DNA of 64,000 nt from a virus (IMGVR_UViG_3300012984_000010); one strand, 5' to 3'; positions 6,245 to 61,508 are shown, counted from the stretch's first letter. Numbers and translations are program-made. The notes: generated by a model from the sequence alone, not told the origin.

Positions 6245-6492
6245 ACTATCTAGGCTGGCTGGGAGCCGCTCTTTTCACTTTCGCATCCGTCCCCCAAGTG
6301 ATCAAAGTTTGGAGGGAAGGGCACGCCCGTGGAATGTCCTGGGGCTACTTGTTGCCCATATGGGTAGGTTTTTGGTGCATGGGGGTCTACACGATCCAGA
6401 CCCGTGCTGGTGTAGCTTTGACATACAGCTATACGTTACAGCTCGTCGCCTTCACAGCGATGATTGTCAGAAAACGATTCCCCAGAGCCTAA
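6241..6492 (+). CDS. PQ-loop / SemiSWEET-family membrane protein
   Basis: 83 aa, three TM segments, GWLG...F....PQVIK..R...ARGMS. Confidence 0.85.
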   Translation: MNYLGWLGAALFTFASVPQVIKVWREGHARGMSWGYLLPIWVGFWCMGVYTIQTRAGVALTYSYTLQLVAFTAMIVRKRFPRA

Positions 6493-6567
6493 TCCTTTGG
6501 TGTATACTCTATTACGGGTCATCATACCCCAAGGAGAAATCGGAACCTCCGGTTGAAGTAAGTCAGA

Positions 6568-7008
6568 ATGGGAAACAGATTGTTTGTTGGTAATCTCTCG
6601 TACAATACGAGCGAAGATGAGTTGAAGACAGTGTTCGCACAAGCAGGGTCAGTCACCAGTGTGCGGATCATCCTGGATCGAGAAACAGGACGAAGCAGGG
6701 GATTTGCCTTCGTCGAACTGAAATCCGATTCGGAAGCAGCCGAGGCGATCGAAACGCTGGACGGCTTGTTGGTAGGAGGCCGAGCCTTGTCGGTCCGCGA
6801 AGCTGAGGACCGCCCACCCCGTCAAAACGGTGGTGGTACTGGAGGCGCCTACGTCAGTAGGCCAGGACCTTCTATCCCCCATCGACCGCAAAGTCGACCC
6901 GCCTATGCCGACTCCCCTCCCCCTGAACTGCCACCCACTGGCAGGAAACAGGGTGGGAAGCAGAAGCGAGATCGAGACCGTCGCAATCGAGACCAAGATT
7001 GGGACTGA
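6568..7008 (+). CDS. RRM (RNP-1) RNA-binding protein with Gly/Pro/Arg-rich tail
   Basis: RNP2 LFVGNL, RNP1 RGFAFVE, DRETGRSRG. Confidence 0.95.
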   Translation: MGNRLFVGNLSYNTSEDELKTVFAQAGSVTSVRIILDRETGRSRGFAFVELKSDSEAAEAIETLDGLLVGGRALSVREAEDRPPRQNGGGTGGAYVSRPGPSIPHRPQSRPAYADSPPPELPPTGRKQGGKQKRDRDRRNRDQDWD

Positions 7009-8047: not shown

Positions 8048-8266
8048 TTGGTCAAATGGTACCACATTTGAGCCACCTTGACACACTGAAAATTGCGTGA
8101 TAAAGGAACGGTCGGCCCTTCCTTTGGGCCAGCACCGTCAACCGGTCTTCCCATACAGGACCTTGTTTGATGGCAAAGTGGGTACGCGCCTGCATGGGAT
8201 TTTGACTTGGTGCTTCGGATCGGATTGAGAGTATGGGTCTCAGCATCCGATCTTGTCGAGGTCCCA

Positions 8267-9457
8267 ATGTCCAGAAAATTCAAGAAGCTAGCCCAAGAAC
8301 TGTCCCAAAAGACTGGCACCTCCTATGCGGGGGCGGTCAATCTGTTGAGGAAAGGTAATCGACGTCCGCCTCAAGCTCCGCTTACGATCCTCCAGTACTG
8401 CGATGAATTAGGGATCGCGCTATATCCAGTCCAACGTTTCATCCTCAAGATGCTTTATCATCTGAAGCTGGACTCCAAAATACCTCGTCACCCCCATAAG
8501 CGCATAGTGGTGAGAGACCCTCTAGATCCGTCCAAGAAGCCAAAAATACTTTCCGAGGTTGGGTATCTCAAGTTCTTGTACGATGCGGGGCGCTGTAATA
8601 TTGGAGTGCAGGACCACGCTCGACGCCAAATAGTGGGGGTGTTGGGTCGCCGTTCGGGAAAGACCACCTTGTCCGCTCTGTTCACTTCATATGAAACCTA
8701 CCGACTGCTTCAGTTGGGAAACCCTCAAGCACACTACGGTTTGCCTGAAGGTAATCGCATACAGGTATTGGCAGTATCGCACGACAAAGATCAAGCTGGA
8801 TTCTTGTTCAATGAAGTGACCAGCCACATCACCAGGTTAGATTCTTTCAAGGACAGTGTGGCAAGCAATACTCAGACTAGCCTCAAGTTTCGAACTTCAC
8901 ATGACTTGGAACAGAAAGAGGTGAGGCCCAGCATTCAAGCCAATTTCAAGAGCTGTTTAGCCAGTAGTCTCAGAGGGTATTCCAATGCGGCGATTGTACT
9001 GGATGAGGTAGCGTTTTTCCACACGGGAGAGGATACCTATATGGCTTCAGCGCCTAGCACGGCCTGGTATAGTCAAAAAGGGGCCGGCAGAATGCTCCTC
9101 ATCTCTACTCCTGATGGCAAAGAAGGGACGCTGTTCCGGCTACATAGATTGGCCTTGAACGGCCCAATAGAGCAAACAGACGACCTGTTGATGCTCCAAA
9201 TCCCCACGTGGGAAGCCAATCCCAAGTTACCTGATTCGATTTACATGGCCGCTAAAGAACAGGGAACGTTCGCAGAATGGTCCGCGAAGTTCGTCGCTAA
9301 GAAGCCGCCTCCCCCTATTGTGACTCCAATCGTTCAAGATACTGTACAGTCGGATATCAAGCTGCAATTCATGGCTGAGATGCTTCAACAGTTGTCGGCT
9401 GAGCAGTTGAGTCAGTTGATTCAACTGGCGAATCAACGGCTAAATCAGGTTGTTTGA
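8267..9457 (+). CDS. Terminase large-subunit-like ATPase lacking the C-terminal nuclease domain
   Basis: Walker A GRRSGKT, DKDQAG.LF, Walker B IVLDEVAFF, LISTP, IPTWEANP; ends ~75 aa later in a Pro-rich linker plus helix; SD GAGG before ATG 8267. Confidence 0.8.
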   Translation: MSRKFKKLAQELSQKTGTSYAGAVNLLRKGNRRPPQAPLTILQYCDELGIALYPVQRFILKMLYHLKLDSKIPRHPHKRIVVRDPLDPSKKPKILSEVGYLKFLYDAGRCNIGVQDHARRQIVGVLGRRSGKTTLSALFTSYETYRLLQLGNPQAHYGLPEGNRIQVLAVSHDKDQAGFLFNEVTSHITRLDSFKDSVASNTQTSLKFRTSHDLEQKEVRPSIQANFKSCLASSLRGYSNAAIVLDEVAFFHTGEDTYMASAPSTAWYSQKGAGRMLLISTPDGKEGTLFRLHRLALNGPIEQTDDLLMLQIPTWEANPKLPDSIYMAAKEQGTFAEWSAKFVAKKPPPPIVTPIVQDTVQSDIKLQFMAEMLQQLSAEQLSQLIQLANQRLNQVV

Positions 9458-41130: not shown

Positions 41131-41403
41131 ATGATCAGATACTTGATGAGGTTCGAAGATGGTAGGCCGGTTCCAGGGAAGGTGTATAGTGTCCAGATAG
41201 GTAAGATGTACGGCTTCCAATCACGCCATACCGGATACCATGTGGGGGAGCTACAGTACAGCAAGACCCTCCAAGCCTATTTCCTAGACTGTGGTCGAGT
41301 TCATTTCTTCGCTTGGCACAATCCATTGGCTGGAGGGTGGTTGGCAGGAGCCATGTCTCACTGCAGACCTTCACTGACGTTAGGACAACCGAACGAAGGC
41401 TAG
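41131..41403 (+). CDS. Hypothetical protein
   Basis: Class B motif (41117-41122) 8 nt before ATG. Confidence 0.65.
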   Translation: MIRYLMRFEDGRPVPGKVYSVQIGKMYGFQSRHTGYHVGELQYSKTLQAYFLDCGRVHFFAWHNPLAGGWLAGAMSHCRPSLTLGQPNEG

Positions 41404-41765
41404 ATCAGCCTAGTTACTTCTGGGTCTCGATCGTACACCGGAAGCGCCCCCTCAGGCATCTGTTCGATTAGGAAGGTCTTGCGAGCGATACCCACGTAGT
41501 CCCTTCGGTATCTGAGAGGGAAGGCCATCGCCTGTGCCAACTTCCTTCGACCCTCTAGGGTCTTGAGGCGCCTAGCTATCAGTTCTTCTCTGACCCACCG
41601 GTCTACCTTGGGGAGTCTGCCGAACAACAGGAAGACAAGCACCAAGGGTAAGAGACGGAACAGATCCCTTCGTGAGAAGGTGTCGACCTTAACCGAGGGG
41701 GCCGACTGACGGGCTACGAAAGCTTGGACGATGCCCTCGATGGGGAAGTTGGATCTCGACAACAT
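41400..41765 (-). CDS. Twin-Arg/TM leader fused to an N-terminal segment of a major-capsid-like protein
   Basis: SRRDLF plus hydrophobic stretch, then TLEGRRKLAQAMAFPLRYRRDYVGIARKTFLIEQMPEGALPVYDRDPEV. Confidence 0.7.
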   Translation of the reverse strand: MLSRSNFPIEGIVQAFVARQSAPSVKVDTFSRRDLFRLLPLVLVFLLFGRLPKVDRWVREELIARRLKTLEGRRKLAQAMAFPLRYRRDYVGIARKTFLIEQMPEGALPVYDRDPEVTRLI

Positions 41766-41769
41766 AGGA

Positions 41770-42186
41770 TTACCAGTCCGGTTTCATCAATGCTTTGGCC
41801 AGTTCTTGCCGGCCTTTTACCGATCTGAGGGCACCTCGAAGCCATTCTTGCTGTGCGGGCGTGAACCCCAGTAGAGCCTTGCCTGATTTCAGACTATCAA
41901 GCTTGATGGTGCAATAGAGGTTGACTTCGTAAGAAGCCCTATTTGGCGAGTAGTATGTCTTGTAGGCGGACCAACCTATCGAACGGTTCCTAGGGTCATC
42001 TGCCGATAGGACGGTCGCCCCTGGATGTTGTTTGACGAAAGTCCGTATCTCCTTGAACACATGGCTGAGGTTACGGCAAGTTGGCAGGGCCTTCTCAGCC
42101 TTAGCTACCGATTCCCGTGGGGCCAGCAGAACCGAGATGAACGGGACACTGGCGAGTATCTTTAGAACAGAACGTCTTGTGGTCAT
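41770..42186 (-). CDS. Putative Tat-exported protein
   Basis: MTTRRSVLKILASVPFISVLLAPRESVAKA-EK (RR motif, h-region, AxA site). Confidence 0.7.
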   Translation of the reverse strand: MTTRRSVLKILASVPFISVLLAPRESVAKAEKALPTCRNLSHVFKEIRTFVKQHPGATVLSADDPRNRSIGWSAYKTYYSPNRASYEVNLYCTIKLDSLKSGKALLGFTPAQQEWLRGALRSVKGRQELAKALMKPDW

Positions 42187-42488
42187 CCGGTCCCCAACTG
42201 GTCCAATGCTTTGAATATCTTGTCGTCCTCAGCCGCTTGGGTCTCCAACCTGGCGACATGATTGCTTCGATCGAGCAACTGGTAACGCCTAGACTTGATA
42301 TCGGTCAAACGGATGGTCGGCATGCTATGAATCTCAAACAGTGGAAACACGACCTGCCGCGCTACCGGCATCCGGACTTTAGGCCTGGGAAGCCAGAGCT
42401 CTACCCAAGCACGGAATGCGGGTATCCCGCCCAGCAGGAGGGCGACAATCGCCAGGGGGAGTAGTTTGAGAAGCTGACGGCGAGACAT
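42183..42488 (-). CDS. Twin-Arg/TM leader fused to a central segment of a major-capsid-like protein
   Basis: MSRRQLLKLLPLAIVALLLGG, then VFPLFEIHSMPTIRLTDIKSRRYQLLDR...ETQAAEDDKIFKALD. Confidence 0.7.
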   Translation of the reverse strand: MSRRQLLKLLPLAIVALLLGGIPAFRAWVELWLPRPKVRMPVARQVVFPLFEIHSMPTIRLTDIKSRRYQLLDRSNHVARLETQAAEDDKIFKALDQLGTG

Positions 42489-42498
42489 CGATTAACTA

Positions 42499-42525
42499 TA
42501 CACCAAAAACCGTGCCAGTGGTGTA
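42499..42525. promoter_or_regulatory. Divergent class B motif pair
   Basis: TACACC (10 nt to ATG 42488, -) and GGTGTA (9 nt to ATG 42535, +). Confidence 0.75.
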
Positions 42526-42534
42526 TAGATCGGT

Positions 42535-42729
42535 ATGACCAAACAAGAATTGCTTGAAGCCGCCGCCCTGATCCTAGAACAGGAAGGTTGGGTGATCGAA
42601 CGTTTCGCCTACGAAAATTGCTCTAGCCGATTGAACCACCTTGCCAAACGTTACCGAGATTGGCAGAACCAGGTCAATCAAGCCAGAGCAGAAGGCCAAG
42701 AATGGCCCGTTCCTCCGGACAACAGCTAA
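42535..42729 (+). CDS. Hypothetical protein
   Basis: Class B motif 9 nt before ATG. Confidence 0.7.
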   Translation: MTKQELLEAAALILEQEGWVIERFAYENCSSRLNHLAKRYRDWQNQVNQARAEGQEWPVPPDNS

Positions 42730-43280
42730 GGGAATGGGTCCAGCAGATTGAAGTCTAGGTACATCAGATGGTACCGTTCCTCAGATGAGTACCTGACCAG
42801 TGTCTTCATCCCCAACAGGCTGACCCTAAGTCCTTCAGGCGAAGGTTCGATCAAGCCATTCTCCAGCAGAGTCTCTTGGGCCATCTCAAAGAGAATATGG
42901 GCTTTTTCCGCCGCCTCTTTGCTGACCATCCGACCTTGGTTTTCAATCATCAGGTCGAACAGTCTCCAGCTACCCCACTTCATCTGAACTCGGTGCCAGG
43001 TTGCCCCAATTGCTCGTTCACTGATGTTGGTCCGGCGGCTACCGTCCATAGCGTCCATCCAAATGCCGGCTCTGGGGTCGTAGCCGGTACATCGATACTG
43101 GACATCTTCAAACACTGCGTTGAACCGTTGTCCCAGCAAACTCTTGATCCATTCGCTGGGTTGGTACATTTCAGTGCCGGTGTAATCTACCCCATTAGGG
43201 TGATCGGAACACGGCTCTTTGGCCGATTCAGATTGGCAGTAACGACAATCTTTGGAGCGGCGGGGGATCTGGTTTTGCAT
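42726..43280 (-). CDS. Hypothetical protein, possible C-terminal winged helix
   Basis: Class A promoter 7 nt before ATG 43280; LLENGLIEPS..GLRVSLLG. Confidence 0.7.
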   Translation of the reverse strand: MQNQIPRRSKDCRYCQSESAKEPCSDHPNGVDYTGTEMYQPSEWIKSLLGQRFNAVFEDVQYRCTGYDPRAGIWMDAMDGSRRTNISERAIGATWHRVQMKWGSWRLFDLMIENQGRMVSKEAAEKAHILFEMAQETLLENGLIEPSPEGLRVSLLGMKTLVRYSSEERYHLMYLDFNLLDPFP

Positions 43281-43287
43281 CACCCAT

Positions 43288-43315
43288 TAGAACGGTCCGT
43301 CCAATCCTTAGTTAA
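43288..43315 (-). promoter_or_regulatory. Class A promoter
   Basis: TTAAC-N15-CCGTTCTA-N7-ATG(43280). Confidence 0.8.
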
Positions 43316-43563
43316 GACGTTCTTATAGTGCAGGCGTGGGGACCGGTCAGATACTGGTCACAACCAGAACAAGGTGTGTAGGTCCCTTTTCGTTGAGTCA
43401 ATACGGTCAGCTGATGAGTGGTGACGTCGTAGTGGAGGCCCAAATCCTTCATCAGAAGGTTTTGGATCACGTCCCCCAAAGAGGATTCGTCAATCGTCAG
43501 CTGCTCAGAACGCTGGGAAGCGTCTTCCAGATTCACAATATTGATCAGCATGCGTCCTCTCAT
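43312..43563 (-). CDS. Hypothetical protein
   Basis: TAATG coupling; C-terminal CSGC...H.C. Confidence 0.6.
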   Translation of the reverse strand: MRGRMLINIVNLEDASQRSEQLTIDESSLGDVIQNLLMKDLGLHYDVTTHQLTVLTQRKGTYTPCSGCDQYLTGPHACTIRTS

Positions 43564-43781
43564 TATAGGCCTATATCTTGCAATAAGGCTTGGTAGCTGC
43601 TGAGGCGTTCGGAGGTGTCCTCACCCTTCACCGTCTGGGTGAGGAGCTCAACCTTTATTGTGGTGGGCCCGGTGACGTTTTGGAGCGTGATCGTCAGATT
43701 ATCCCCCATCTGCGTCAGCATGACAGGATCATGTACCCTTGTCCCTAAACCATCCGGCGTGGTGACCTGGATCTTGACCAT
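43563..43781 (-). CDS. Hypothetical protein with C-terminal SSYxxLL tag
   Basis: Ends ERLSSYQALLQDIGL; class B motif (43792-43797) 10 nt before ATG. Confidence 0.7.
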   Translation of the reverse strand: MVKIQVTTPDGLGTRVHDPVMLTQMGDNLTITLQNVTGPTTIKVELLTQTVKGEDTSERLSSYQALLQDIGL

Positions 43782-43799
43782 TCAGTAGATCTACACCAC

Positions 43800-44066
43800 C
43801 TACTCGACGAACTTAGGTAAACTCTGAAGCGCCTCCTGAAGGCCTTTTGTTGAGAGGGAACGGGTCAGCATTGCTGCCGCATCCTTCCCATCTTTGATGA
43901 CCGTGGTCCAACCGCCCAAAATAGGGTGGCGCAATTGGACCACGTATTGGTCAGACTCAGCCAAACATCGCAGGCGGAAAACCCCCACCGTCAACTCCCA
44001 AACGGTCTTGCGAGCAACTTCCTGCCGGCCCTTCACTCGGGCCTGGACGTCCTTGTCCTGGCTCAT
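43800..44066 (-). CDS. Hypothetical protein
   Basis: TGATG coupling. Confidence 0.65.
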   Translation of the reverse strand: MSQDKDVQARVKGRQEVARKTVWELTVGVFRLRCLAESDQYVVQLRHPILGGWTTVIKDGKDAAAMLTRSLSTKGLQEALQSLPKFVE

Positions 44067-44431
44067 CAGAGGTCGAAGGTTCGGCAGCCGTACAGCTCAT
44101 AGAGTGCTTGCTCGGCTGGTGAATTGGGTTCCACCACCAGCACATTGTTGAGCTGATGACGGATGCGTCGGAGCTTCTCGGAATACCAATTGCACCAGAC
44201 CTTGATCTCGTACGGCGGCTCAACGAGATCGGCTGCGATCCGTTCGGCCTTGTCCTGATCTGGACCGCTGTAGACGATGAAATCCTGGGATGTGTAGGAG
44301 GCGGTGTCCCGAGTGTTGACGTCGAGATTGAGCACCACCCGATGGTTACCTTTTTGCCGGCCCAGGGCGGTATTTTGGCTTGGGAGAGTCTCGACCTTTG
44401 TTTTGACTTTTGTTCCGATCGTCTTGTCCAT
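44066..44431 (-). CDS. Hypothetical protein
   Basis: Start revised to ATG 44431 (MDKTIG) using the class A promoter. Confidence 0.7.
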   Translation of the reverse strand: MDKTIGTKVKTKVETLPSQNTALGRQKGNHRVVLNLDVNTRDTASYTSQDFIVYSGPDQDKAERIAADLVEPPYEIKVWCNWYSEKLRRIRHQLNNVLVVEPNSPAEQALYELYGCRTFDL

Positions 44432-44436
44432 GCCTA

Positions 44437-44464
44437 CCAAACGGCCGGCGAGGATCGGGGTTAA
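44437..44464 (-). promoter_or_regulatory. Class A promoter (variant)
   Basis: TTAAC-N15-CCGTTTGG-N5-ATG(44431). Confidence 0.65.
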
Positions 44465-44467
44465 GAT

Positions 44468-44662
44468 CTATAGATTAAGATCTTCGAGCAAGGCTTCGTA
44501 ACGAGACTTTCTGACGGGAGCTGGCAACCTCACGACGATTGTGTGTGGGTGCTGCATCAAAGCTCCGTGCCGGTTAGGAGGGTCTCCTCTCCTTCGGCTT
44601 TGAAGCCAGGCCTGCTCCCTCTGATGTTCGAATTCCATCAGATCGATCATATTGAACGGCAT
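44468..44662 (-). CDS. Small protein with C-terminal SRYxxLL tag
   Basis: Ends LPAPVRKSRYEALLEDLNL. Confidence 0.7.
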   Translation of the reverse strand: MPFNMIDLMEFEHQREQAWLQSRRRGDPPNRHGALMQHPHTIVVRLPAPVRKSRYEALLEDLNL

Positions 44663-44964
44663 CAGCGGCCCTGCAACCCAAGCTCAGAAAGGATCGTCTG
44701 ACAATATTGAATCTGCTGATCCAACACATCCTTCAACCCTTTCTCGACTCCTTCCAACGAGTCCGCTTGAGCCATGTAGGTCGTCCGATCCCCTATACGA
44801 GTGTACAGGAGCCAACGATCTTTGTCAGGATCCAAAGTACCGGCTGGGTAATGCCACACTCCGATAAATGGACCGTAGGGGTCTTTAGATTGGTACACAT
44901 CTAGATGTGTGTGCTGCTCAGTCAACGGAAGCGTGCGGCCCAGTACTTGGAGGGTTTTCATCAT
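44662..44964 (-). CDS. Hypothetical protein ('GRTL' paralog family)
   Basis: LQVLGRTL...ADSLEGVEKGLKDVL...ILSELGL. Confidence 0.7.
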   Translation of the reverse strand: MMKTLQVLGRTLPLTEQHTHLDVYQSKDPYGPFIGVWHYPAGTLDPDKDRWLLYTRIGDRTTYMAQADSLEGVEKGLKDVLDQQIQYCQTILSELGLQGR

Positions 44965-45371
44965 TCCTTTGATGAGCCGTCCACAAAAGAAATCTTATTA
45001 GGCGGTGGTAGAGCGGACATATCGGAATGACTACCAAAGGTGACATCAACCCCGTAGTGATCTCGAAGATGTACCCGCAACACCTCAACGTTCACCTGTT
45101 CGACAATAACAGTTGTCTTCCGATCGTTGGCCCATTCGATCGTGTAGGTACCGTCCTCTAGGGCGTAGTGGTCTGACAGATGGTCGTTGTCTGAAGGGGG
45201 CACCACATTTTCTCCAGCAAGCAATCGAGGGAGCGGGAGTTTCAGCAAAGAAGAATGAGGGTTGTGGACCCTGAGCACGAACTTCTTGTCTTGAGACGGC
45301 TCCCCTTCGATGGGCCGAAGGGTCTGGAATGCGTGGTTACCCAGTTGATCAACGAAGAGAGACTTTAGCAT
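44961..45371 (-). CDS. Hypothetical protein
   Basis: Class B motif (45381-45386) 9 nt before ATG. Confidence 0.7.
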   Translation of the reverse strand: MLKSLFVDQLGNHAFQTLRPIEGEPSQDKKFVLRVHNPHSSLLKLPLPRLLAGENVVPPSDNDHLSDHYALEDGTYTIEWANDRKTTVIVEQVNVEVLRVHLRDHYGVDVTFGSHSDMSALPPPNKISFVDGSSKE

Positions 45372-45390
45372 CGCGGTCTCTACACCGAGG

Positions 45391-45801
45391 TTAGCCCTTT
45401 ATTGGGTCGTAGTCGAGGTGTTCCCGAAACGACGTTCGCCTCACAACAGAAGATACGGGTACGGTAGGCACCTGGAACATGAACGGGCTACAGGTCTGAA
45501 AGTCGACTAGTTCGGAAGGAAAAGAGTCTGGCACCACTCCCACACGATCTTGCGGTACTTTAACTGATTTCAGTACGTTAGCTCCCCACAGATGTCCTTC
45601 AAAGTACCCGCCGCTACGACTGTTCTGAAAACTAATCGCCTGCGTCAATTCCCCGACCGCATTATGATCGAAATAAACGGACGCCTTTAGAATTCTGAAC
45701 TGAATCGGATGCAACCAGATACAGCCAATCTTAAGATCAGTTAGGTCGAATTGATGGAACAGCTCGCTAAGACGTTGGATCAGAGGGCTTTCATCCGGCA
45801 C
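45391..45801 (-). CDS. C-terminal-half (A-domain-like) segment of a major-capsid-like protein
   Basis: LSELFHQFDLTDLKIGCIWLHP...GYFEGHLWGANVLKSVKVPQDRVGVV; class B motif (45810-45815) 8 nt before GTG 45801. Confidence 0.6.
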   Translation of the reverse strand: MPDESPLIQRLSELFHQFDLTDLKIGCIWLHPIQFRILKASVYFDHNAVGELTQAISFQNSRSGGYFEGHLWGANVLKSVKVPQDRVGVVPDSFPSELVDFQTCSPFMFQVPTVPVSSVVRRTSFREHLDYDPIKG

Positions 45802-45808
45802 CCCTTCT

Positions 45809-46030
45809 CTACACCTCACGCCGCTTCTTCATATTCCGATCACGGCTGGCATCCGCCATAGGAGAGGAGGTACCTAGCTTGCTCTCCCAACGAAGCAGCT
45901 CCTTCACTGCCGGTCCAATCTGACCTTTCTCGGTCACGAAGTCCTGGGACCTCACCGAGCCGTCCAGATTGAGGACACGTATTCCCCAACCTCGGCCTAA
46001 GAAGGTCACCTTTGTTTTGAGAGTCTCCAT
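45809..46030 (-). CDS. Hypothetical protein
   Basis: Class A variant promoter 6 nt before ATG. Confidence 0.7.
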   Translation of the reverse strand: METLKTKVTFLGRGWGIRVLNLDGSVRSQDFVTEKGQIGPAVKELLRWESKLGTSSPMADASRDRNMKKRREV

Positions 46031-46064: not shown

Positions 46065-46221
46065 GTCTTGAGTTAGACCATCCATTCGGATCTTTGGTCC
46101 AGCTCGTGTAGATTCAGAGATGCCCACCATCTAGCCAGGCTGGGGAAAGGCCGCCCAAAAGGCGTTGGCATCTCATACAGACAGGGAACTGATTATGGTC
46201 AACGTAGACAGTCACTGGCCA

Positions 46222-46725
46222 TCACCATGACATATACTCATGGAAGGATGTGAACCACTCCCGCCAAGTGTGGGTAGCTTGGTGCCACTCGTTCTTACCC
46301 ACCCAGGTCTGCAGATAGGCGTGGAGTTCGGCTGTGGCGGATGCGATGAACTGATCGAGCGAGAACTGACGGTTCTCGTCATCGATAGGATCGTATCTAC
46401 TCCCGTTCCTTGAGGCTTCCAGTCCCGCCAGAAAGCCGATCCGAAGATCCCTGATTCTAGCTTGGGCGAAAACTTTTTCAAAACTTGCGCTGGCCGCCAT
46501 ATCGAGCAACTGCTGCCAGTTGGCCTTCAGGTAGGCTGTGAAAGCCTCCTCTTTCCGAGCCCATTCTTGGGCAACATCTGCTGGATCCCTGCCGGTCTGA
46601 TCAGCCGTAAGGGTTATGCCTTCAATCTCCTGATCGGTCCGTCCCGCCATCCATTGCTTGTCTGATGGTGTAACCGTCTCTAGAGAGACCGCTTGTTCGG
46701 CTGCCTCGGAAGGATCTTTGCTCAT
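46222..46725 (-). CDS. Hypothetical protein
   Basis: Start revised to ATG 46725 using the class B motif. Confidence 0.7.
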   Translation of the reverse strand: MSKDPSEAAEQAVSLETVTPSDKQWMAGRTDQEIEGITLTADQTGRDPADVAQEWARKEEAFTAYLKANWQQLLDMAASASFEKVFAQARIRDLRIGFLAGLEASRNGSRYDPIDDENRQFSLDQFIASATAELHAYLQTWVGKNEWHQATHTWREWFTSFHEYMSW

Positions 46726-46733
46726 GCGGTCAA

Positions 46734-46750
46734 TACACCAATTCGGTGTA
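46734..46750. promoter_or_regulatory. Divergent class B motif pair
   Basis: TACACC-N5-GGTGTA; 8 nt to ATG 46725(-), 9 nt to ATG 46760(+). Confidence 0.8.
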
Positions 46751-46759
46751 AACCCACTC

Positions 46760-46951
46760 ATGGAGACTTTGCTACACTTTTGGGGTTATGCAGGAACGCC
46801 CAAACACCCTGAAAAAGATGGTGTTTATCCCTGTGGTGCCCTTACAGGTGAACAAAATTCTGCCACAGGTTATGCCAGAAACGTAACTTGTCCTGGCTGC
46901 CGGATGGCCTTAGACGCCTCTTTTTCAGCAGCCCTCTTACCTGTTCGGTAG
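46760..46951 (+). CDS. Small Zn-binding protein
   Basis: LH...YPCG...VTCPGC; start revised to 46760. Confidence 0.7.
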   Translation: METLLHFWGYAGTPKHPEKDGVYPCGALTGEQNSATGYARNVTCPGCRMALDASFSAALLPVR

Positions 46952-46975
46952 AACACAAGAGGTGTAAGAGCCTAG

Positions 46976-47269
46976 ATGGGACTTGAAGACGACCCTGAAT
47001 ACTTGGAAGTGCTCAGGAAAGCTAAAGAGTGGGAAGCTCGTGGTGTGGTGGCGCCAATGGCCTGTAGTGAGGCGTTGGAGCCCATCTTTGACGCTGATCT
47101 GCCTCTAGGCTCCACAATCCTCATCCCCGCTTTCAATCAAGGGTATGACCATTGTACGCTCCAGAAGGATGCGGAGGGATTTTACGCTCAAAGTGAATAT
47201 GCCGAGATGTACCGACTGGCTTTTGGACCAAACTGGTATATCACGTCTGAGCTGCCGCCTCAGTATTGA
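46976..47269 (+). CDS. Hypothetical protein
   Basis: Class B motif (46961-46966) 9 nt before ATG. Confidence 0.7.
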   Translation: MGLEDDPEYLEVLRKAKEWEARGVVAPMACSEALEPIFDADLPLGSTILIPAFNQGYDHCTLQKDAEGFYAQSEYAEMYRLAFGPNWYITSELPPQY

Positions 47270-47650
47270 TCACTTCCAGGATCGTTCGATCCGCTTCCGA
47301 CGATTCAGCTCTGCCAAAACGTCACGGGCCGTCAGATCTTGAGGTGATGGTGGCGCCTTGGGTTCCACCACTCGCTTGACTTTCAGCTTCTTTCGCAGGT
47401 AGTTCTCGTACTTGGCTCGGGCCAAAAGCCGCTGTTCGTACGGGGTTTGCTTTTGACCCACGATCGTCATCCCAGTCGAGGTCATGCAGCTGACCACCCA
47501 AGGCTTGGTGGGAGACCAAGATTTGATGTGATCTAGCTCGATTGGAAATCCAGGAAGTTCCAATCGCTTGAGAACGTTCCCCTCTGGCAACTGTAGGTAT
47601 AGTTGGTCAAACAGCTGGAGCCCATCTTCGATGTCTTTTTCAGTCGCCAT
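47270..47650 (-). CDS. Hypothetical protein
   Basis: Class A promoter 5 nt before ATG. Confidence 0.75.
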   Translation of the reverse strand: MATEKDIEDGLQLFDQLYLQLPEGNVLKRLELPGFPIELDHIKSWSPTKPWVVSCMTSTGMTIVGQKQTPYEQRLLARAKYENYLRKKLKVKRVVEPKAPPSPQDLTARDVLAELNRRKRIERSWK

Positions 47651-47655
47651 GTTGA

Positions 47656-47683
47656 TAGAACGGATGTCCGGTCTAGAGGTTAA
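47656..47683 (-). promoter_or_regulatory. Class A promoter
   Basis: TTAAC-N15-CCGTTCTA-N5-ATG(47650). Confidence 0.8.
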
Positions 47684-47686
47684 GGG

Positions 47687-48205
47687 CTAGCGGATCGAAA
47701 CAGCTTGACCGGCTTGGACCAACCCCAACTCGTAGGCCTTTCCGATTCTCTCTGCCAACACGGCGAGCAGTTGCAACGCTGTCAGGTCTTTCAACTCGTC
47801 CCCATCGGGGGTGCAGTTGTAGTCACGGTTGAACAACAGCCAGGAGTTCAGGTCTCCCAGTTGGGCCGCAATAGTGTATTCCCAGCCGAAAAAATCGAAT
47901 TCTTTGGAATGGTTGGGCTCGTCTTTGCAGGCAAAGACGTGTGCCATCTCATGCAAGACATGAGGCCAAGGGGTGTTGGGATCTGTGTATAGGATCGTAC
48001 GAGAGACGTGGTGTACCGCCAAATCGTAACTGGAGAAAGGAGCCTCTGACCAGCCATACACTACTTTTCTCTGATCAAATTCTACCTCGGTTGTCGAGAC
48101 CAACTGGCCACCCCATTGTTCGATCATCTGAGCCAGGAGAGCCAATTTCAATCGATTGTCTGGCCGACTCAGATAGTGGTGTTCAGATCCTAGATTGAAG
48201 GTCAT
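47687..48205 (-). CDS. Putative zincin-like metallopeptidase
   Basis: HVLHEMAHVF (HExxH) followed by acidic E. Confidence 0.55.
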   Translation of the reverse strand: MTFNLGSEHHYLSRPDNRLKLALLAQMIEQWGGQLVSTTEVEFDQRKVVYGWSEAPFSSYDLAVHHVSRTILYTDPNTPWPHVLHEMAHVFACKDEPNHSKEFDFFGWEYTIAAQLGDLNSWLLFNRDYNCTPDGDELKDLTALQLLAVLAERIGKAYELGLVQAGQAVSIR

Positions 48206-48214
48206 AGGCTGTAC

Positions 48215-48562
48215 TCAGAGGGGGCAACGAAACACGAAGGCTACAATGTCCTTCGATGGGAGGCGTTGACTGAGACCCAGATCAACCAGTGTCATGTGAA
48301 TTCGGAACAACTTGGTGTTTTGCTCAGAGCGTTGGAAGATCACTTGATCGTGGGTCAACAACCCCATCAATTCTTGCTCTTCGTCGTGGGTGAGCTGGTA
48401 GGCATACCATTCACCTCTGGTAGTCAAAACGTGCCCAAAGGCTCGGGATTGGAGCAAGCCCTTCTGGACGAGCTCCAGAGTGATCTTGGCAGAGGGTTTA
48501 TCACCCCCCAATCGGAGGTAGGATCGGAGGCCGCGTAGTTGGGGTCCAGTCAGCTTGGTCAT
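48215..48562 (-). CDS. Hypothetical protein with two winged-helix-like repeats
   Basis: LT..QLRGL...LVQKGLL...LT.RG, then LT..EEQEL...LVDLGL; class A promoter. Confidence 0.7.
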   Translation of the reverse strand: MTKLTGPQLRGLRSYLRLGGDKPSAKITLELVQKGLLQSRAFGHVLTTRGEWYAYQLTHDEEQELMGLLTHDQVIFQRSEQNTKLFRIHMTLVDLGLSQRLPSKDIVAFVFRCPL

Positions 48563-48568
48563 GTTAGA

Positions 48569-48596
48569 TAGAACGTAACTGGCGAACGATTGTTAA
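48569..48596 (-). promoter_or_regulatory. Class A promoter
   Basis: TTAAC-N15-ACGTTCTA-N6-ATG(48562). Confidence 0.75.
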
Positions 48597-48611
48597 GTCC
48601 AAATTGTCGTT

Positions 48612-48941
48612 TTACGGAAGTTCGTCCATGATGGCATTCATGGCGTTCTGCATCGACAGATCATCGCCCGCCTGAACGGCTGACTCATACTCGGCGTAGC
48701 GACGGCGAAGCTTCTGGAACAGGTGTTGCTTGTGAGGCTCGATTTTTGAATCGTCTCCCGAGACGTTCCTAGTCCTCTCTTGCGCGTACGTCTCCCATGC
48801 CTCAGCGAAGGTCACCCATTCTTTTCCGCCGAAAGTCCACTTGCTGTCGATACGGCGAGAACGCCACCCGTTCTTCTTCAAAAGGTAAAGCTTGCCTTCA
48901 TCAGTGAATTGGATCGTGGGTTGTGTCGTCATTTTTGTCAC
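48612..48941 (-). CDS. Hypothetical protein
   Basis: GTG 48941 or ATG 48932. Confidence 0.65.
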   Translation of the reverse strand: MTKMTTQPTIQFTDEGKLYLLKKNGWRSRRIDSKWTFGGKEWVTFAEAWETYAQERTRNVSGDDSKIEPHKQHLFQKLRRRYAEYESAVQAGDDLSMQNAMNAIMDELP

Positions 48942-48957
48942 ATATGGCCCATCTAGG

Positions 48958-49066
48958 CAACGAAGTTAGGGTTGCGACCCCTAGCCCAATCCAGGTTACT
49001 CCACCGGGCTTCTCACCCGTAGGCTTCTTGATAGTTCCAGGCCTCTGCTGGCGAGCCCTTCGTTGT
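48958..49066 (-). ncRNA. Candidate ~109-nt structured RNA with its own promoter
   Basis: Predicted +1 at 49066; 8-bp closing stem CAACGAAG/CTTCGTTG; internal hairpins CGGGT-GAGAA-GCCCG, GGT-GGAGTA-ACC, GGGT-CGCA-ACCC; no ORF. Confidence 0.6.
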
Positions 49067-49072
49067 AATGGT

Positions 49073-49100
49073 TAGAACGGCTGGGGTGGTGGAAAGTTAA
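49073..49100 (-). promoter_or_regulatory. Class A promoter (no start codon follows)
   Basis: TTAAC-N15-CCGTTCTA. Confidence 0.8.
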
Positions 49101-49103
49101 GCC

Positions 49104-49469
49104 TCAGCTCCAGCCCAATACCGCCCCCACATGTTCAACCTGTTCCTCACGTCCCAATCTCAGGAACTTCAGATGGGCCGCCTGATGTTCGGGAGGGATC
49201 CGCACAGTAGGGCAGATTCGCAACGCACTGCTTACGTGGCACACCAGCTCCTCCCCATGCCAGTCCAGCGCCATACTGTCACGCCAGCGAATCAATCGCT
49301 CGACGTCAGGTTCCACCACAATGGGTTCCATTTCGGGTAGATCCTCCTCCGTAGAAGCGTCACACAAGGCTTGCAACCTATCTGCCAACCATTGGACATC
49401 ATGCTGTTTAAGCTCAGCCGAGCCCTGCAGATGCAGGAGGATCTGCCTCGCTTCTTCACGATAGTTCAT
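49104..49469 (-). CDS. Hypothetical protein
   Basis: Start revised to ATG 49469 (MNYREEA) using the class B motif. Confidence 0.7.
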   Translation of the reverse strand: MNYREEARQILLHLQGSAELKQHDVQWLADRLQALCDASTEEDLPEMEPIVVEPDVERLIRWRDSMALDWHGEELVCHVSSALRICPTVRIPPEHQAAHLKFLRLGREEQVEHVGAVLGWS

Positions 49470-49478
49470 CGGTTGTAC

Positions 49479-49496
49479 TACACCGAATCTGGTGTA
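49479..49496. promoter_or_regulatory. Divergent class B motif pair
   Basis: TACACC-N6-GGTGTA; 9 nt to ATG 49469(-), 10 nt to ATG 49507(+). Confidence 0.8.
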
Positions 49497-49506
49497 TTGA
49501 TACATC

Positions 49507-49845
49507 ATGTACTTCCGCCAATACGTCACCCAGCATCTTGAAGCGTATGCCAAAACTCCTGGAATGTGGGGGTCTAACGAGACGATCGAAGCCCTGTCGA
49601 TCCAGCTTTTGGATCTAGAGATTCAACATTATCGCCCCGAAGTGTTGGAAGCTGAACCTCGCTTGGTGATAGATACCTACACCCGAGAAGTGTCGAGACG
49701 GTATGGGTCCGGCGTGCTACCCCTACATGCGAGAACGCCAGATCAATTCGACCATGCGCCGAAAGTTCTGGATTTCAGCAAAGAATTGCTGGACTGTTGT
49801 CTAGCGGTCCGCAGTCAGCTTTGGCTCAAGCTAGGGTACCCCTAG
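49507..49845 (+). CDS. Hypothetical protein
   Basis: Class B motif; YAKTPGMWGS. Confidence 0.7.
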   Translation: MYFRQYVTQHLEAYAKTPGMWGSNETIEALSIQLLDLEIQHYRPEVLEAEPRLVIDTYTREVSRRYGSGVLPLHARTPDQFDHAPKVLDFSKELLDCCLAVRSQLWLKLGYP

Positions 49846-50195
49846 GCTGGCGACCGCCATCCGTGTTGAAGGGCGGTTCTAACCCATCGGGGGATCTGTT
49901 GTTTGATCCAGCGTTCCCCTACCCGCTCTGCCGCCCTGATGGCTTGGAGAGCCGTCTTAGCCTGACCGGTCTGATATTGATTCGAGTGGTTGAAATCGGT
50001 GGTGCTGATCGTCCAGCAGTACTGGCCGTCGATCAAATCAACCCATAGAGTACAAGCTAGGGGCCACAACCCATGTCTCAGATCTTTCTCTTTCTGAGCC
50101 AGCAAGTTGCAACCCCAAGGGCTGTAGTTCAACGCTTTGGCAAACCAGATCCACTTGGATCCTTTGGGCGGGTGGTAGGCGAGTTCGAAGCTCAT
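49842..50195 (-). CDS. Hypothetical protein
   Basis: ORF. Confidence 0.65.
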   Translation of the reverse strand: MSFELAYHPPKGSKWIWFAKALNYSPWGCNLLAQKEKDLRHGLWPLACTLWVDLIDGQYCWTISTTDFNHSNQYQTGQAKTALQAIRAAERVGERWIKQQIPRWVRTALQHGWRSPA

Positions 50196-50199
50196 TAGG

Positions 50200-50643
50200 T
50201 CAACGTAAGTGTAGGTTGAGCCAAGGCACTGTGGTTTGAAACTTGGCTAGGATCAAGTCTTGAACACCTAACCATCGATCGGCCTCGCCTTTGTGACGGT
50301 ATCGGCGTTCTCGGTAGAGCGCACGGTATTGTTGTCCCAAAACATAGTAAGGATTGGATGGTTCGAAAATGACCCTGTAGTTTTCGAACCCATTGATGAA
50401 TTGCTGTAGGTTGTCGATCGAGATCCCCCATCTGGCCTTGAGGTTCAGCACGGTGGATGCGGTGGTGGCAAACGGTTCCAACACACCAACCAAGTAGCCC
50501 AACGGACAGTTGCAAGCTCGGCCACCATCCATCTGTAGCCCGATCGTCACCGCATCTGCCATCTTCTGGGCGAAGGTTTGGAACAGGGCCTTGTCATCTC
50601 GATGGTGAGCTACGTCTCGCATGACTTGTTTCCAGGGGCGCAC
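50200..50643 (-). CDS. Hypothetical protein
   Basis: Class B motif (50653-50658) 9 nt before GTG 50643. Confidence 0.65.
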   Translation of the reverse strand: MRPWKQVMRDVAHHRDDKALFQTFAQKMADAVTIGLQMDGGRACNCPLGYLVGVLEPFATTASTVLNLKARWGISIDNLQQFINGFENYRVIFEPSNPYYVLGQQYRALYRERRYRHKGEADRWLGVQDLILAKFQTTVPWLNLHLR

Positions 50644-50659
50644 CCCCCTCATTACACCG

Positions 50660-52618
50660 TCAAGGGCCGAAGCAGTCCTTCTCTATCCGCATCCTCACAC
50701 TGAACTTGGCGTTTCCAGGTGACCCCACACCTGTGATCGACCAGCTAGCGAGCGTACCGTTTGGACCACATTCGATGATGATATCGCCCCCATTGCCGCC
50801 TAGAGTGGTGAGAGCGGTTCCGGTTGCGACGGCTTTGGTTTGAGCCACCCCCGAGTCATCGGTCCAAGTGCAATTCAATACTGGGGTGCCGGTCGCCGCC
50901 GCATCGGCAGTCGTGACCGCCACATACCCCATCACACGGTAGAGTCCAGCTTGTCTGATTTGGTAGAAATTCGTGGCACTGACGTTGGCATTTTGCAGCT
51001 TTCGGTAGAACCCGCTGTCCGTCAGATTGTAATTGTTGTCGACATTGTAGTTGCCACCGATCAACCCGCAGTTCCCGTTCCTCAGCTGAATGGGGTTGTC
51101 GCTGAAGCTGAAATAAAGATTGTCGGCTACGATGTTCTGTGTGCTGGGGATCTTCCAGCACGTGGAGAACACGGTAGGGGCAATGTTGCCCTGCACCGCG
51201 TAACTGTTGGCCATGATGACGATCCCATAGTCGAACGGAGTGGTGTTTCCCCACAAGTAACCGTTGAAATCTGCGTTGAGAAACTCAGACCCTTCGCAGA
51301 GCAGGATCGCACTGCCGTTACCGATACCTCCACCAGAAGTCACGTTTCCTCTGATGAACTCAATACAGCCGCTACTTCCACCGGAGAATAGGTTGGTGTA
51401 GCTGCTAAAACAGATCCATTTCGAGTGAACTGATTGGCCAGGATGGTTGAAGTCGTCCCCGATACCTATTCTAAGTTGTCCGCCGTCAATGGTGAGACCG
51501 TAACTATTGACCATCCCATTCAAAGCCAATATGCCTTGAATCATGTGGTCAATGACGCACCAACCATTACCAAATAGAGACGTCCTTCCGCCTCGGGGTG
51601 TTCGGCATTGAAGCAATGTCGCTCCACCAACAGTATTCTCCCATCTACCGCCAGCAGAGGTTTGCTGGGAACATGAAATGTGGACCGGCCCTCCAATCCC
51701 CGCATACGGGGTATTCAGCGAACTACCGCCGATCGAAACGCGGGTGAACTTTCCATACTGAACGAATACTCTGGCGAATCCTGTGCAGGTAATTTCTAGT
51801 CGGGTGATTTGAGTCACCAGTTGGGTCACTACACATGTGTCGCCAGCAAGAGGTTTTATGTCCTGACCGTGTCCGCCGTTCGTAATACTGCCTGCAAATG
51901 TTGGAACGCTGAAGCCGCCAACGTAGGTGTGTTGTGCGTCACCAATTAGACCTGTCGAATAAGCGGCAGCCCCAACAATGCTCAATCCAGGGGCGGATGA
52001 AGAAGTGATCTCGATGAGCTCGCCATCGAGGAACGTACCTGAAGCGGTCGAAAGCTGGCCACGTTGATTGGTGGTCGCGATAGGTATAACCGCGTCAGCG
52101 TTCAACGTGATGGGAGCACTCGACATCTTGCCACAGATGATGTTTAGAAAGTAGAGTGCGATCCCTGCGTAGAGGGGCGCAGACGTCCCGACGTTGATCA
52201 TCAACTGGGGGAAAATGAATGTGGCTGGCCCAGGGTTGGCGGTATTCAGATAGACGGTGACATCATTAGTCAGATGCTGTCGACGACCGTTAGGCCATAA
52301 ACGACGCATCAACTCATCTGTAGTGGCAAGGGCGGTACCTAGCGTCTTGCCATCGGCCGTATCATCTCCCGTCGGATCTACGTACCAAACAGGCTGGCTC
52401 GCAAGTGCGGTGGAGGATGTGACGAAAACCCAAGTGTTGTCCTTCCCCAACTCATAATAACACTGAGTGGTTCGACAATAGACCAGCTGACCCTCAGATG
52501 TGTGGGGGATCAGCTGGAGATCTGCCATCGTATCAACGACCTGAAATAGCGAACTAGGGACCTGGCCCGTCGCCAATTCGTTGAGATACGTACCTAGACC
52601 GTCAGTCGCAAGAGCCAT
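50660..52618 (-). CDS. Large tail-fibre/tailspike-like protein (652 aa)
   Basis: N-terminal VDTMADL..IP...EGQLVY...Q.YY, WYVDPTGDDTADG; Gly/Asn/Thr-rich beta-helix-like body. Confidence 0.6.
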   Translation of the reverse strand: MALATDGLGTYLNELATGQVPSSLFQVVDTMADLQLIPHTSEGQLVYCRTTQCYYELGKDNTWVFVTSSTALASQPVWYVDPTGDDTADGKTLGTALATTDELMRRLWPNGRRQHLTNDVTVYLNTANPGPATFIFPQLMINVGTSAPLYAGIALYFLNIICGKMSSAPITLNADAVIPIATTNQRGQLSTASGTFLDGELIEITSSSAPGLSIVGAAAYSTGLIGDAQHTYVGGFSVPTFAGSITNGGHGQDIKPLAGDTCVVTQLVTQITRLEITCTGFARVFVQYGKFTRVSIGGSSLNTPYAGIGGPVHISCSQQTSAGGRWENTVGGATLLQCRTPRGGRTSLFGNGWCVIDHMIQGILALNGMVNSYGLTIDGGQLRIGIGDDFNHPGQSVHSKWICFSSYTNLFSGGSSGCIEFIRGNVTSGGGIGNGSAILLCEGSEFLNADFNGYLWGNTTPFDYGIVIMANSYAVQGNIAPTVFSTCWKIPSTQNIVADNLYFSFSDNPIQLRNGNCGLIGGNYNVDNNYNLTDSGFYRKLQNANVSATNFYQIRQAGLYRVMGYVAVTTADAAATGTPVLNCTWTDDSGVAQTKAVATGTALTTLGGNGGDIIIECGPNGTLASWSITGVGSPGNAKFSVRMRIEKDCFGP

Positions 52619-61004: not shown

Positions 61005-61508
61005 ATGATGAACCGCCGATCCATGCTCCAAGCCCTCACTTGTCTGCCGGTACTCTCGATCACCTTACCCGCCGCAGCAAAAGATACCGGACCAAAAACT
61101 CCCTCGACAGGCGAACGGTTCCTCTCCGGCATGCAATACCTGCTCGATAATCACCAAAACATGGTCGACTACATGGAGCGCTTCGCCACATTGGAACCCA
61201 CAGCCAGGCAGGTGGTCGATAAGGTCCAACGGACCACCATCGCGTTGGCCCAACAACTCAAGCAGCAAGGTCTGGTCGAACACACCAAGCCTTGGAACAA
61301 TTGTAGCGAAGGAGCTGTGTTGAGGTGGGCCGATCGATTTGGCGACATGGGGCTAAATTCCCACCTGCCCTACTGTAGGCTGAACCAACCTAGGCTGGTC
61401 CCAGCCATGAGGGCGTATGAGGCCGCCAGATGGGAGTTGAAGAAATATTGCTGGGAACGCAGCGCAAAGACCCTCCGTAGTCCTTGTAGGCCGGATTATT
61501 TGGGTTGA
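61005..61508 (+). CDS. Putative Tat-exported protein
   Basis: MMNRRSMLQALTCLPVLSITLPAAA-KD; class B motif (60991-60996) 8 nt before ATG. Confidence 0.7.
   Translation: MMNRRSMLQALTCLPVLSITLPAAAKDTGPKTPSTGERFLSGMQYLLDNHQNMVDYMERFATLEPTARQVVDKVQRTTIALAQQLKQQGLVEHTKPWNNCSEGAVLRWADRFGDMGLNSHLPYCRLNQPRLVPAMRAYEAARWELKKYCWERSAKTLRSPCRPDYLG

Follow-up and report, generated by a model that had tools for sequence, protein, structure and literature searches.

Why should a huge phage encode pieces of a major capsid protein (MCP) as separate small genes, several of them fitted with export-type leaders? The question is raised by a 64,000-nucleotide stretch of viral DNA (IMGVR_UViG_3300012984_000010; hereafter the window), in which the first-pass annotation, made from the sequence alone, had described three open reading frames (ORFs), here named A, B and C, as segments of one capsid protein. 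The window is phage-like with a GC content of 0.53, one terminase-like ORF and many ORFs without known family, and it belongs to a soil phage with a genome of about 475 kb, protein A being recorded on a 475,623-bp contig. Translation of the window revealed A, B and C to be intact on the minus strand, as described, within a long minus-strand run of small genes, and added a fourth piece, ORF X, that had been overlooked (Table 1).

Table 1. Capsid-like ORFs and paired start-proximal motifs of the window (residue and nucleotide ranges of the MCP-like segments in the last column)
Feature	Position	Strand	Description
ORF A	41400..41765	-	121 residues; MCP segment at residues 53-118, nt 41412-41609
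ORF X	41770..42186	-	138 residues; MCP segment at residues 57-76, nt 41959-42018
ORF B	42183..42488	-	101 residues; MCP segment at residues 43-97, nt 42198-42362
Two divergent copies of the start-proximal motif GGTGTATAG	42497..42529		Jointly an inverted repeat, hairpin-like
ORF C	45391..45819	-	A-domain piece of MCP, profile about 165-257; leaderless

To establish the family to which the pieces belong, they were compared with curated capsid profiles and with phage genomes. In PHROG phrog_2522 ('major head protein', 318 positions), A matched positions 43-102 (E 1.9e-6) and B positions 122-175 (E 1.3e-5), and in NCBIfam NF042927 (HK97-fold MCP, 280 positions) the two matched positions 5-63 and 82-135, with scores of 26.3 and 18.9 bits against a family cut-off of 80. 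By tblastn, A and B matched a single gene, in natural order and at one place per record, in Bacillus phage G (gp27), Tunturiibacter phage Tunturi_5 and the uncultured phage LR745208, and the MCPs of these three phages recovered A, B and C when searched against the window. ORF C matched residues 159-232 of phage G gp27 (tblastn, E 3e-4), and the MCP C-terminus matched ORF X over 19 residues with 63% identity. The region had no blastn match among GenBank phages, tblastn of ORF C against phages gave none, no relatives came from IMG/VR scans in which B, X and C were the queries, and a protein atlas search returned sub-threshold leads only.

An MCP profile of our own (295 positions, from 13 MCPs) was searched against all six-frame ORFs of the window, and its four best matches were A (positions 7-72, E 2e-23), B (89-143, E 2e-16), X (257-276, E 1.5e-3) and C (170-243, E 5e-3). 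Alignment with hhalign at the expected MCP segments gave 92.5% for X (E 4.8e-7, X together with its sole relative P0124) and 71% for C (E 3.7e-5), the alignment of C reaching about position 257, where the X match starts. Each ORF spans 20-90 profile positions and jointly the four span 7-276, scarcely overlapping, so that by profile alignment they tile nearly the entire MCP fold with little overlap. All four showed significant homology to the HK97-fold MCP family of phage G, and none held the whole fold in a single chain or scored above the family cut-off. The earlier proposal of three pieces of one HK97-fold MCP from large phages thus holds as to the family, the collinear succession of segments and their scarce overlap; the pieces number four, and the order of their genes is scrambled.

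For the MCP family a structure has been solved (that of phage G gp27, PDB 6WKK), and the breaks between the pieces were placed on a model of a canonical family member (predicted local distance difference test, pLDDT, 81.8). On this model, the cut points lie in loops or domain junctions, namely the E-loop tip (A/B), the end of the spine helix (B/C) and the junction of A-domain and P-domain (C/X). ORF A carries the N-arm helices and the first E-loop strand, ORF B the second E-loop strand, a P-domain strand and the spine helix, and ORF X the C-terminal P-domain strands, the tail of X weakly resembling the MCP N-arm helix. Complex prediction of mature A, B, C and X from our own alignments yielded a low-confidence model that counts neither for nor against an association (score 0.00, pLDDT 38-62), and the AlphaFold2 model of P0220, a natural fusion in the order B-A, resolved the spine helix alone and was too poor for use (pLDDT 56.5).

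The phage also appears to possess a canonical MCP of this family. Some 104 kb ahead of the window, its genome has a stretch that shares 16 of 79 indexed words with a canonical MCP, suggesting that the canonical gene lies there, upstream of the window. A pattern back-translated from the peptide EYIKTAAG was also searched in metagenome contigs, and the two sibling-sample contigs that it listed were rejected for their GC content (0.36 and 0.63 against 0.53).

On the coding strand the genes stand in the order C, nine unrelated small ORFs, B, X and A, scrambled relative to the order A-B-C-X of the MCP. The stop codon of B overlaps the ATG of X (ATGA) and A begins 4 nt past the X stop, which makes B, X and A one tightly coupled operon. 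The likely start of C is a GTG at 45801 (136 residues), its longest reading frame beginning at 45819.

The leaders of the pieces form the second half of the puzzle. ORF B opens with a twin-arginine leader (residues 1-24, MSRRQLLK and a hydrophobic helix), ORF X with MTTRRSVLK, a hydrophobic helix and AKA, and ORF A, after an N-terminal extension of 30 residues, with FSRRDLFR and a hydrophobic helix, so that three pieces are leader-fitted and not the two first described. The motifs (SRRQLLK in B, TRRSVLK in X, SRRDLFR in A) all fit the pattern Z-R-R-x-hydrophobic-hydrophobic, and each is followed by a hydrophobic stretch (mean hydropathy 2.5-2.7 in a 13-residue window) and a c-region with a basic residue. 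When all six frames of the window were scanned for motif plus hydropathy, five matches were obtained against 0.29 expected from shuffles, three of the five being the adjacent B, X and A. From this likeness to substrates of twin-arginine translocation (Tat), which is one of sequence alone, we infer that the leaders are predicted Tat signals. The leaders of A and B are closer to each other than to those of other loci, and the same is true within a comparable cassette on contig L016 (described below), suggesting leader duplication or concerted evolution in each lineage. Signal-anchor-release (SAR) or spanin-like lysis proteins, which were also considered, were rejected on account of the invariant arginine pair, the lack of a lipobox and the MCP-derived passengers. 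A fourth of the five matches is an unrelated 167-residue ORF elsewhere in the window (61005-61508, plus strand), which has a clear Tat-like signal (MMNRRSMLQAL..AAAKD), no MCP similarity and only a weak TetR_C-like Pfam lead, so that the phage encodes at least one further predicted Tat substrate.

To find out whether the fusion of leader and capsid piece is kept elsewhere, B was searched with phmmer against 1.84 billion cluster representatives, which gave 115 matches, three of them near-full MCPs and the remainder small proteins. P0126 (95 residues) and P0127 (103 residues) align with B over their full length from residue 1, including an ISRR-type leader, with 49-54% identity. A second clade of Tat-led B proteins (P0136, P0157, P0197, P0200, P0203 and P0220) has textbook RRxFLK leaders with signal-peptidase-like sites (VSA, VAA), by which its pieces are probably released outside the cytoplasm. 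The nearest MCPs of the two clades differ, P0137 in one (54-65% identity) and P0228 in the other (69-83%). Across 17 leaders the arginine pair is unsubstituted in every case, and all 17 fit Z-R-R-x-hydrophobic-hydrophobic. Codon comparison of leader-plus-B genes, a check proposed with the original description, gave ratios of nonsynonymous to synonymous substitution (dN/dS) of 0.27-0.32 in the clade of B itself and 0.19 in the second clade, values that are rough since dS is near saturation. On these alignments the leader-plus-B design is conserved under purifying selection.

The strongest evidence comes from gene order, analogous cassettes having been found in other lineages. On a 47-kb phage-like contig (L016/L017), a Tat-led B is directly followed by a Tat-led A, a C39-type peptidase and a 295-residue Tat-led MCP-like protein; on L136, Tat-led A and B genes are joined by an ATGA overlap; on L015, a single protein, P0220, reads Tat-B-A; and on L085, a Tat-led A is accompanied by a leaderless X-like gene and by two other ORFs with Tat leaders, of which one is MCP-like. 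The break between A and B always falls in the E-loop region, its exact residue varying. Tat-led A and Tat-led B are adjacent in three lineages, and this, with the natural fusion, speaks for joint action of A and B; such neighbours or fusions suggest a physical partnership between the encoded proteins. The C39-family cysteine peptidase (L016 10594-11139, plus strand, also on L017; Pfam E 1.6e-20) lies between the Tat-led A and the Tat-led MCP-like gene and hints at processing within that cassette; no counterpart was found near the cassette of the window.

The locus itself is reproducible. Protein A occurs on nine soil-sample contigs, of which the five shown come from two Joint Genome Institute (JGI) and three ENA samples, and across these assemblies B, X, A and C differ by at most one synonymous change. 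The 20 kb around A match the window with 100% or 99.995% identity in two assemblies and with 98.6% in a second strain (L004/L007), where the four genes together carry a single synonymous change, giving no power for a selection test. Along the 12.4-kb block compared with this strain there are 151 mismatches in all, the part from C to past A being nearly invariant; in positions 1-5600 of L004/L007, compared with about 46200-51700 of the window, the differences are concentrated in genes upstream of C and many are synonymous. The RNA search listed no run with the operon, soil DNA runs only. No flanking DNA repeats or mobile-element signatures were found around the pieces, which leaves no sign of mobile insertion, and the pieces and intervening ORFs had no Pfam match to Hint, intein or HNH domains. 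Splitting of the capsid gene by an intein, an intron or a mobile insertion was ruled out by the lack of Hint motifs and repeats and by the scrambled order.

The reading we favour, to which we give about an even chance, is that B, X, A and C form a conserved accessory cassette of this huge soil phage, in which Tat-routed MCP pieces serve as an envelope-located capsid mimic, neither a virion capsid gene nor a dead copy. A phage-G-type MCP copy would have been split, at loops and at the junctions of domains, into four proteins translated separately, of which B, X and A would have acquired paralogous Tat-type signal peptides, and the host Tat pathway, if the leaders are read correctly, would deliver the pieces to the cytoplasmic membrane or move them through it. 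A and B would probably pair to rebuild the E-loop hairpin and the N-arm/spine-helix periphery, since the last strand of A and the first strand of B are the two strands of that hairpin and offer an obvious pairing surface, while X would supply the remaining P-domain strands, and the leaderless C, the A-domain, would either hitchhike with the other pieces or act apart. Tat is a route for passengers that fold or assemble before export, which would suit interdependent pieces of one fold and permit the hitchhiking of C. The assembled mimic would then bind a partner that recognises the conserved MCP periphery.

Several observations weigh against this reading. In the curated Tat model TIGR01409, B reached 13.0 bits, below the cut-off of 16.7 (among its relatives P0200 passes with 21.0 bits and P0220 scores 14.9), and A and X matched neither TIGR01409 nor PF10518, both very short models. 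The leaders of the window are Leu-rich and very hydrophobic, beyond what is typical of Tat signals, and might remain uncleaved as membrane anchors or be routed by Sec and the signal recognition particle. ORF C has no leader and lies 3 kb away from B-X-A, and no relatives of it were found outside this phage; X has one relative, P0124, which is 38% identical and leaderless; and next to the closest relatives of B, whose contigs are short, neither A nor X is present. The near saturation of dS counts on the same side.

Among the alternatives, the one that survives best is that the pieces are cytoplasmic decoys that titrate capsid-sensing immune proteins before the real MCP builds up. MCPs are common immune triggers, Avs7 and Dsr1 targeting and binding the MCP core fold (bioRxiv 10.64898/2026.01.04.697583), the segments retained here (N-arm, spine helix) are the most conserved of the MCP, and the B matches include many leaderless half-MCP and B-only small proteins that would fit such a role. 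A cytoplasmic job is hard to square with export-type leaders on three of the four pieces, conserved across lineages, and with the cleavage-like sites of the second clade that point to probable release outside the cytoplasm, and we regard the decoy function as unlikely.

Dominant-negative interference with the assembly of related competitor phages, an exclusion function, is improbable on similar grounds. Fragments of oligomerising proteins are natural poisons, each clade of Tat-led B tracks a different MCP clade, and interference with virion assembly has reported prophage or satellite precedents in Tab (PMC10884400) and Tai (PMC11364771). Like the present pieces these are encoded by mobile elements, and they act on the structural proteins of another phage; their targets, however, are tails, and neither descent from the target protein nor a Tat leader is known for them. 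Capsids, moreover, assemble in the cytoplasm while the leaders point outward, the phage's own MCP of the same family would be endangered too, and the phage looks lytic and huge rather than a prophage.

It is still less probable that a piece held by its leader at the inner membrane acts as a tether or nucleator on which full-length MCP docks to begin the phage's own procapsid. Proheads of T4 do begin on the membrane, the leaders of the window are hydrophobic enough for stable anchors, and P0163, P0165 and P0232 have N-terminal hydrophobic helices lacking the arginine pair. An N-terminal anchor led by the arginine pair, however, places the C-terminal piece outside, and phage G, Tunturi_5 and LR745208, each with one matching place only, lack the cassette, so that capsids of this type have no general need of it.

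Neutral decay of a duplicated capsid gene, its remnants still open by chance, is very hard to sustain. The pieces are about 50% identical to canonical MCPs and are thus far more diverged than these are from one another, the best 120 matches being 83-100% identical to the query, and C and X match the MCP weakly; the same comparison marks the pieces as a diverged extra copy rather than a shell subunit. Against decay, each piece has its own or a coupled start, three paralogous Tat motifs are implausible by decay, the design is kept in relatives with a dN/dS of about 0.27, and analogous cassettes exist in distant lineages. The ORFs show no frameshifts or internal stops and no lack of starts, the leader-plus-B genes show no neutral evolution, relatives of B keep the leader fusion, and the profile matches to HK97-fold MCPs are significant, all of which agrees with the initial view that the pieces are domesticated and not decaying. 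That the pieces are instead the real capsid protein of the phage, made as four chains, is scarcely credible even though they tile almost the whole fold, given the canonical MCP-like stretch indexed in the same genome and the export leaders and missing E-loop tip, which are incompatible with a shell subunit; like decay, it is effectively excluded.

Further rearranged capsid proteins were observed among the relatives. A large leaderless 'half-MCP' family (P0128, P0133, P0143, P0145-P0148, P0150, P0153 and others) comprises N-arm, E-loop and spine helix, begins with MEHxxIIxSxGK and ends with SGNKEE, and holds extra copies of an E-loop-like hairpin motif (xHDxxxIxSxGK) between segments and even within the spine helix. 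In two groups of single chains (P0183, P0212, P0236, P0239; P0193, P0216, P0221, P0238) the MCP segments are circularly permuted, some reading B then A and others the second half of the spine helix, the C-terminal P-domain strands and then the start of B. Contig L009 has a canonical MCP gene and, some 3.3 kb from it, two tandem ORFs of 96 and 59 residues (6491-6781 and 6307-6486, both minus strand) that join the MCP N-arm segment to a zinc-ribbon-like CxxC...CxxC tail, one of them with EGRRKLAQAM exactly as in A of the window. L010 5377-6441 (plus strand) and P0002 are chimeras of an unrelated N-domain, the MCP N-terminal segment and a common small C-terminal domain, and in the L010 chimera the MCP C-terminal strands follow the N-terminal segment with the middle deleted. 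Within the window, a 416-residue ORF (8207-9457, plus strand) matches large-terminase profiles in part (phrog_2, 352-435 of 807) and could be a further case of a head or packaging protein copied in shortened form.

The sequence GGTGTA[GT]A, called a class B motif in the first-pass annotation, where it was noted directly before two of the genes, stands 5-9 nt before start codons. It is indeed found ahead of C, as GGTGTAGA 6 nt before the GTG at 45801, and ahead of B, where one of the paired copies lies 7 nt before the ATG and the other precedes a plus-strand gene at 42535. It also precedes many other starts of the window, for example at 45386, 43797, 42504, 40829, 25600 and 10041 on the minus strand and 28383, 60991 and 12054 on the plus strand, and has the appearance of a start-proximal signal specific to the phage, for either a promoter or ribosome binding.

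How does the cassette compare with systems already known? The four pieces find their homologues in successive segments of phage G gp27 and its family (NF042927, phrog_2522), one segment per piece, and differ from it in their partial fold, scrambled order, three export leaders and scores far below 80 bits. Tat also exports pre-assembled complexes by a 'hitchhiker' mechanism, as in the hydrogenase HybO/HybC and in DmsA/DmsB. These resemble the cassette, by sequence, in their twin-arginine leaders and in having several co-transcribed subunits of which at least one (here C) is leaderless, while the cassette has no cofactor, viral capsid passengers and three subunits each with its own leader. Capsid-sensing immunity is well established for the Gol peptide of T4 gp23, which activates Lit, and for CapRel. 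Together with Avs7 and Dsr1, these systems demonstrate biological recognition of short conserved MCP surfaces; their triggers, however, are parts of a working capsid protein sensed in the cytoplasm and not separate leader-bearing phage genes. Encapsulins and T4 gp24 likewise re-use the HK97 capsid fold for a new or specialised role, but in them the fold is complete within a single chain, which does not leave the cytoplasm or virion, and no Pfam match to encapsulin (Linocin_M18) was found in the four pieces and neighbouring ORFs. Full-text literature searches returned no paper linking Tat signals with capsid fragments, in line with the initial statement that no description of Tat- or transmembrane-fused capsid fragments was known, and the Tat-led capsid-piece design is undescribed in the literature searched.

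The usual view takes capsid proteins as cytoplasmic building blocks and immune triggers, and a selected design that cuts the MCP at structural joints and adds Tat-type leaders matches no described phage function. With 115 cluster representatives, nearly all small proteins, the B-type piece represents a large unannotated family. We propose tentatively, and with rather more doubt than conviction, that phages have repeatedly converted segments of their capsid protein into proteins exported by Tat, and that these take part in an unrecognised envelope process involving capsid-protein surfaces. Such a process might be hitchhiker export by which host sensors that bind capsid protein are cleared from the cytoplasm, or the exclusion of related phages by an exported capsid mimic made of two pieces. 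Should the pieces prove to be exported, they would constitute a new class of phage envelope proteins, and their leader, partner and phenotype would offer a testable handle on the ways in which phages exploit or protect their shell-protein surfaces.

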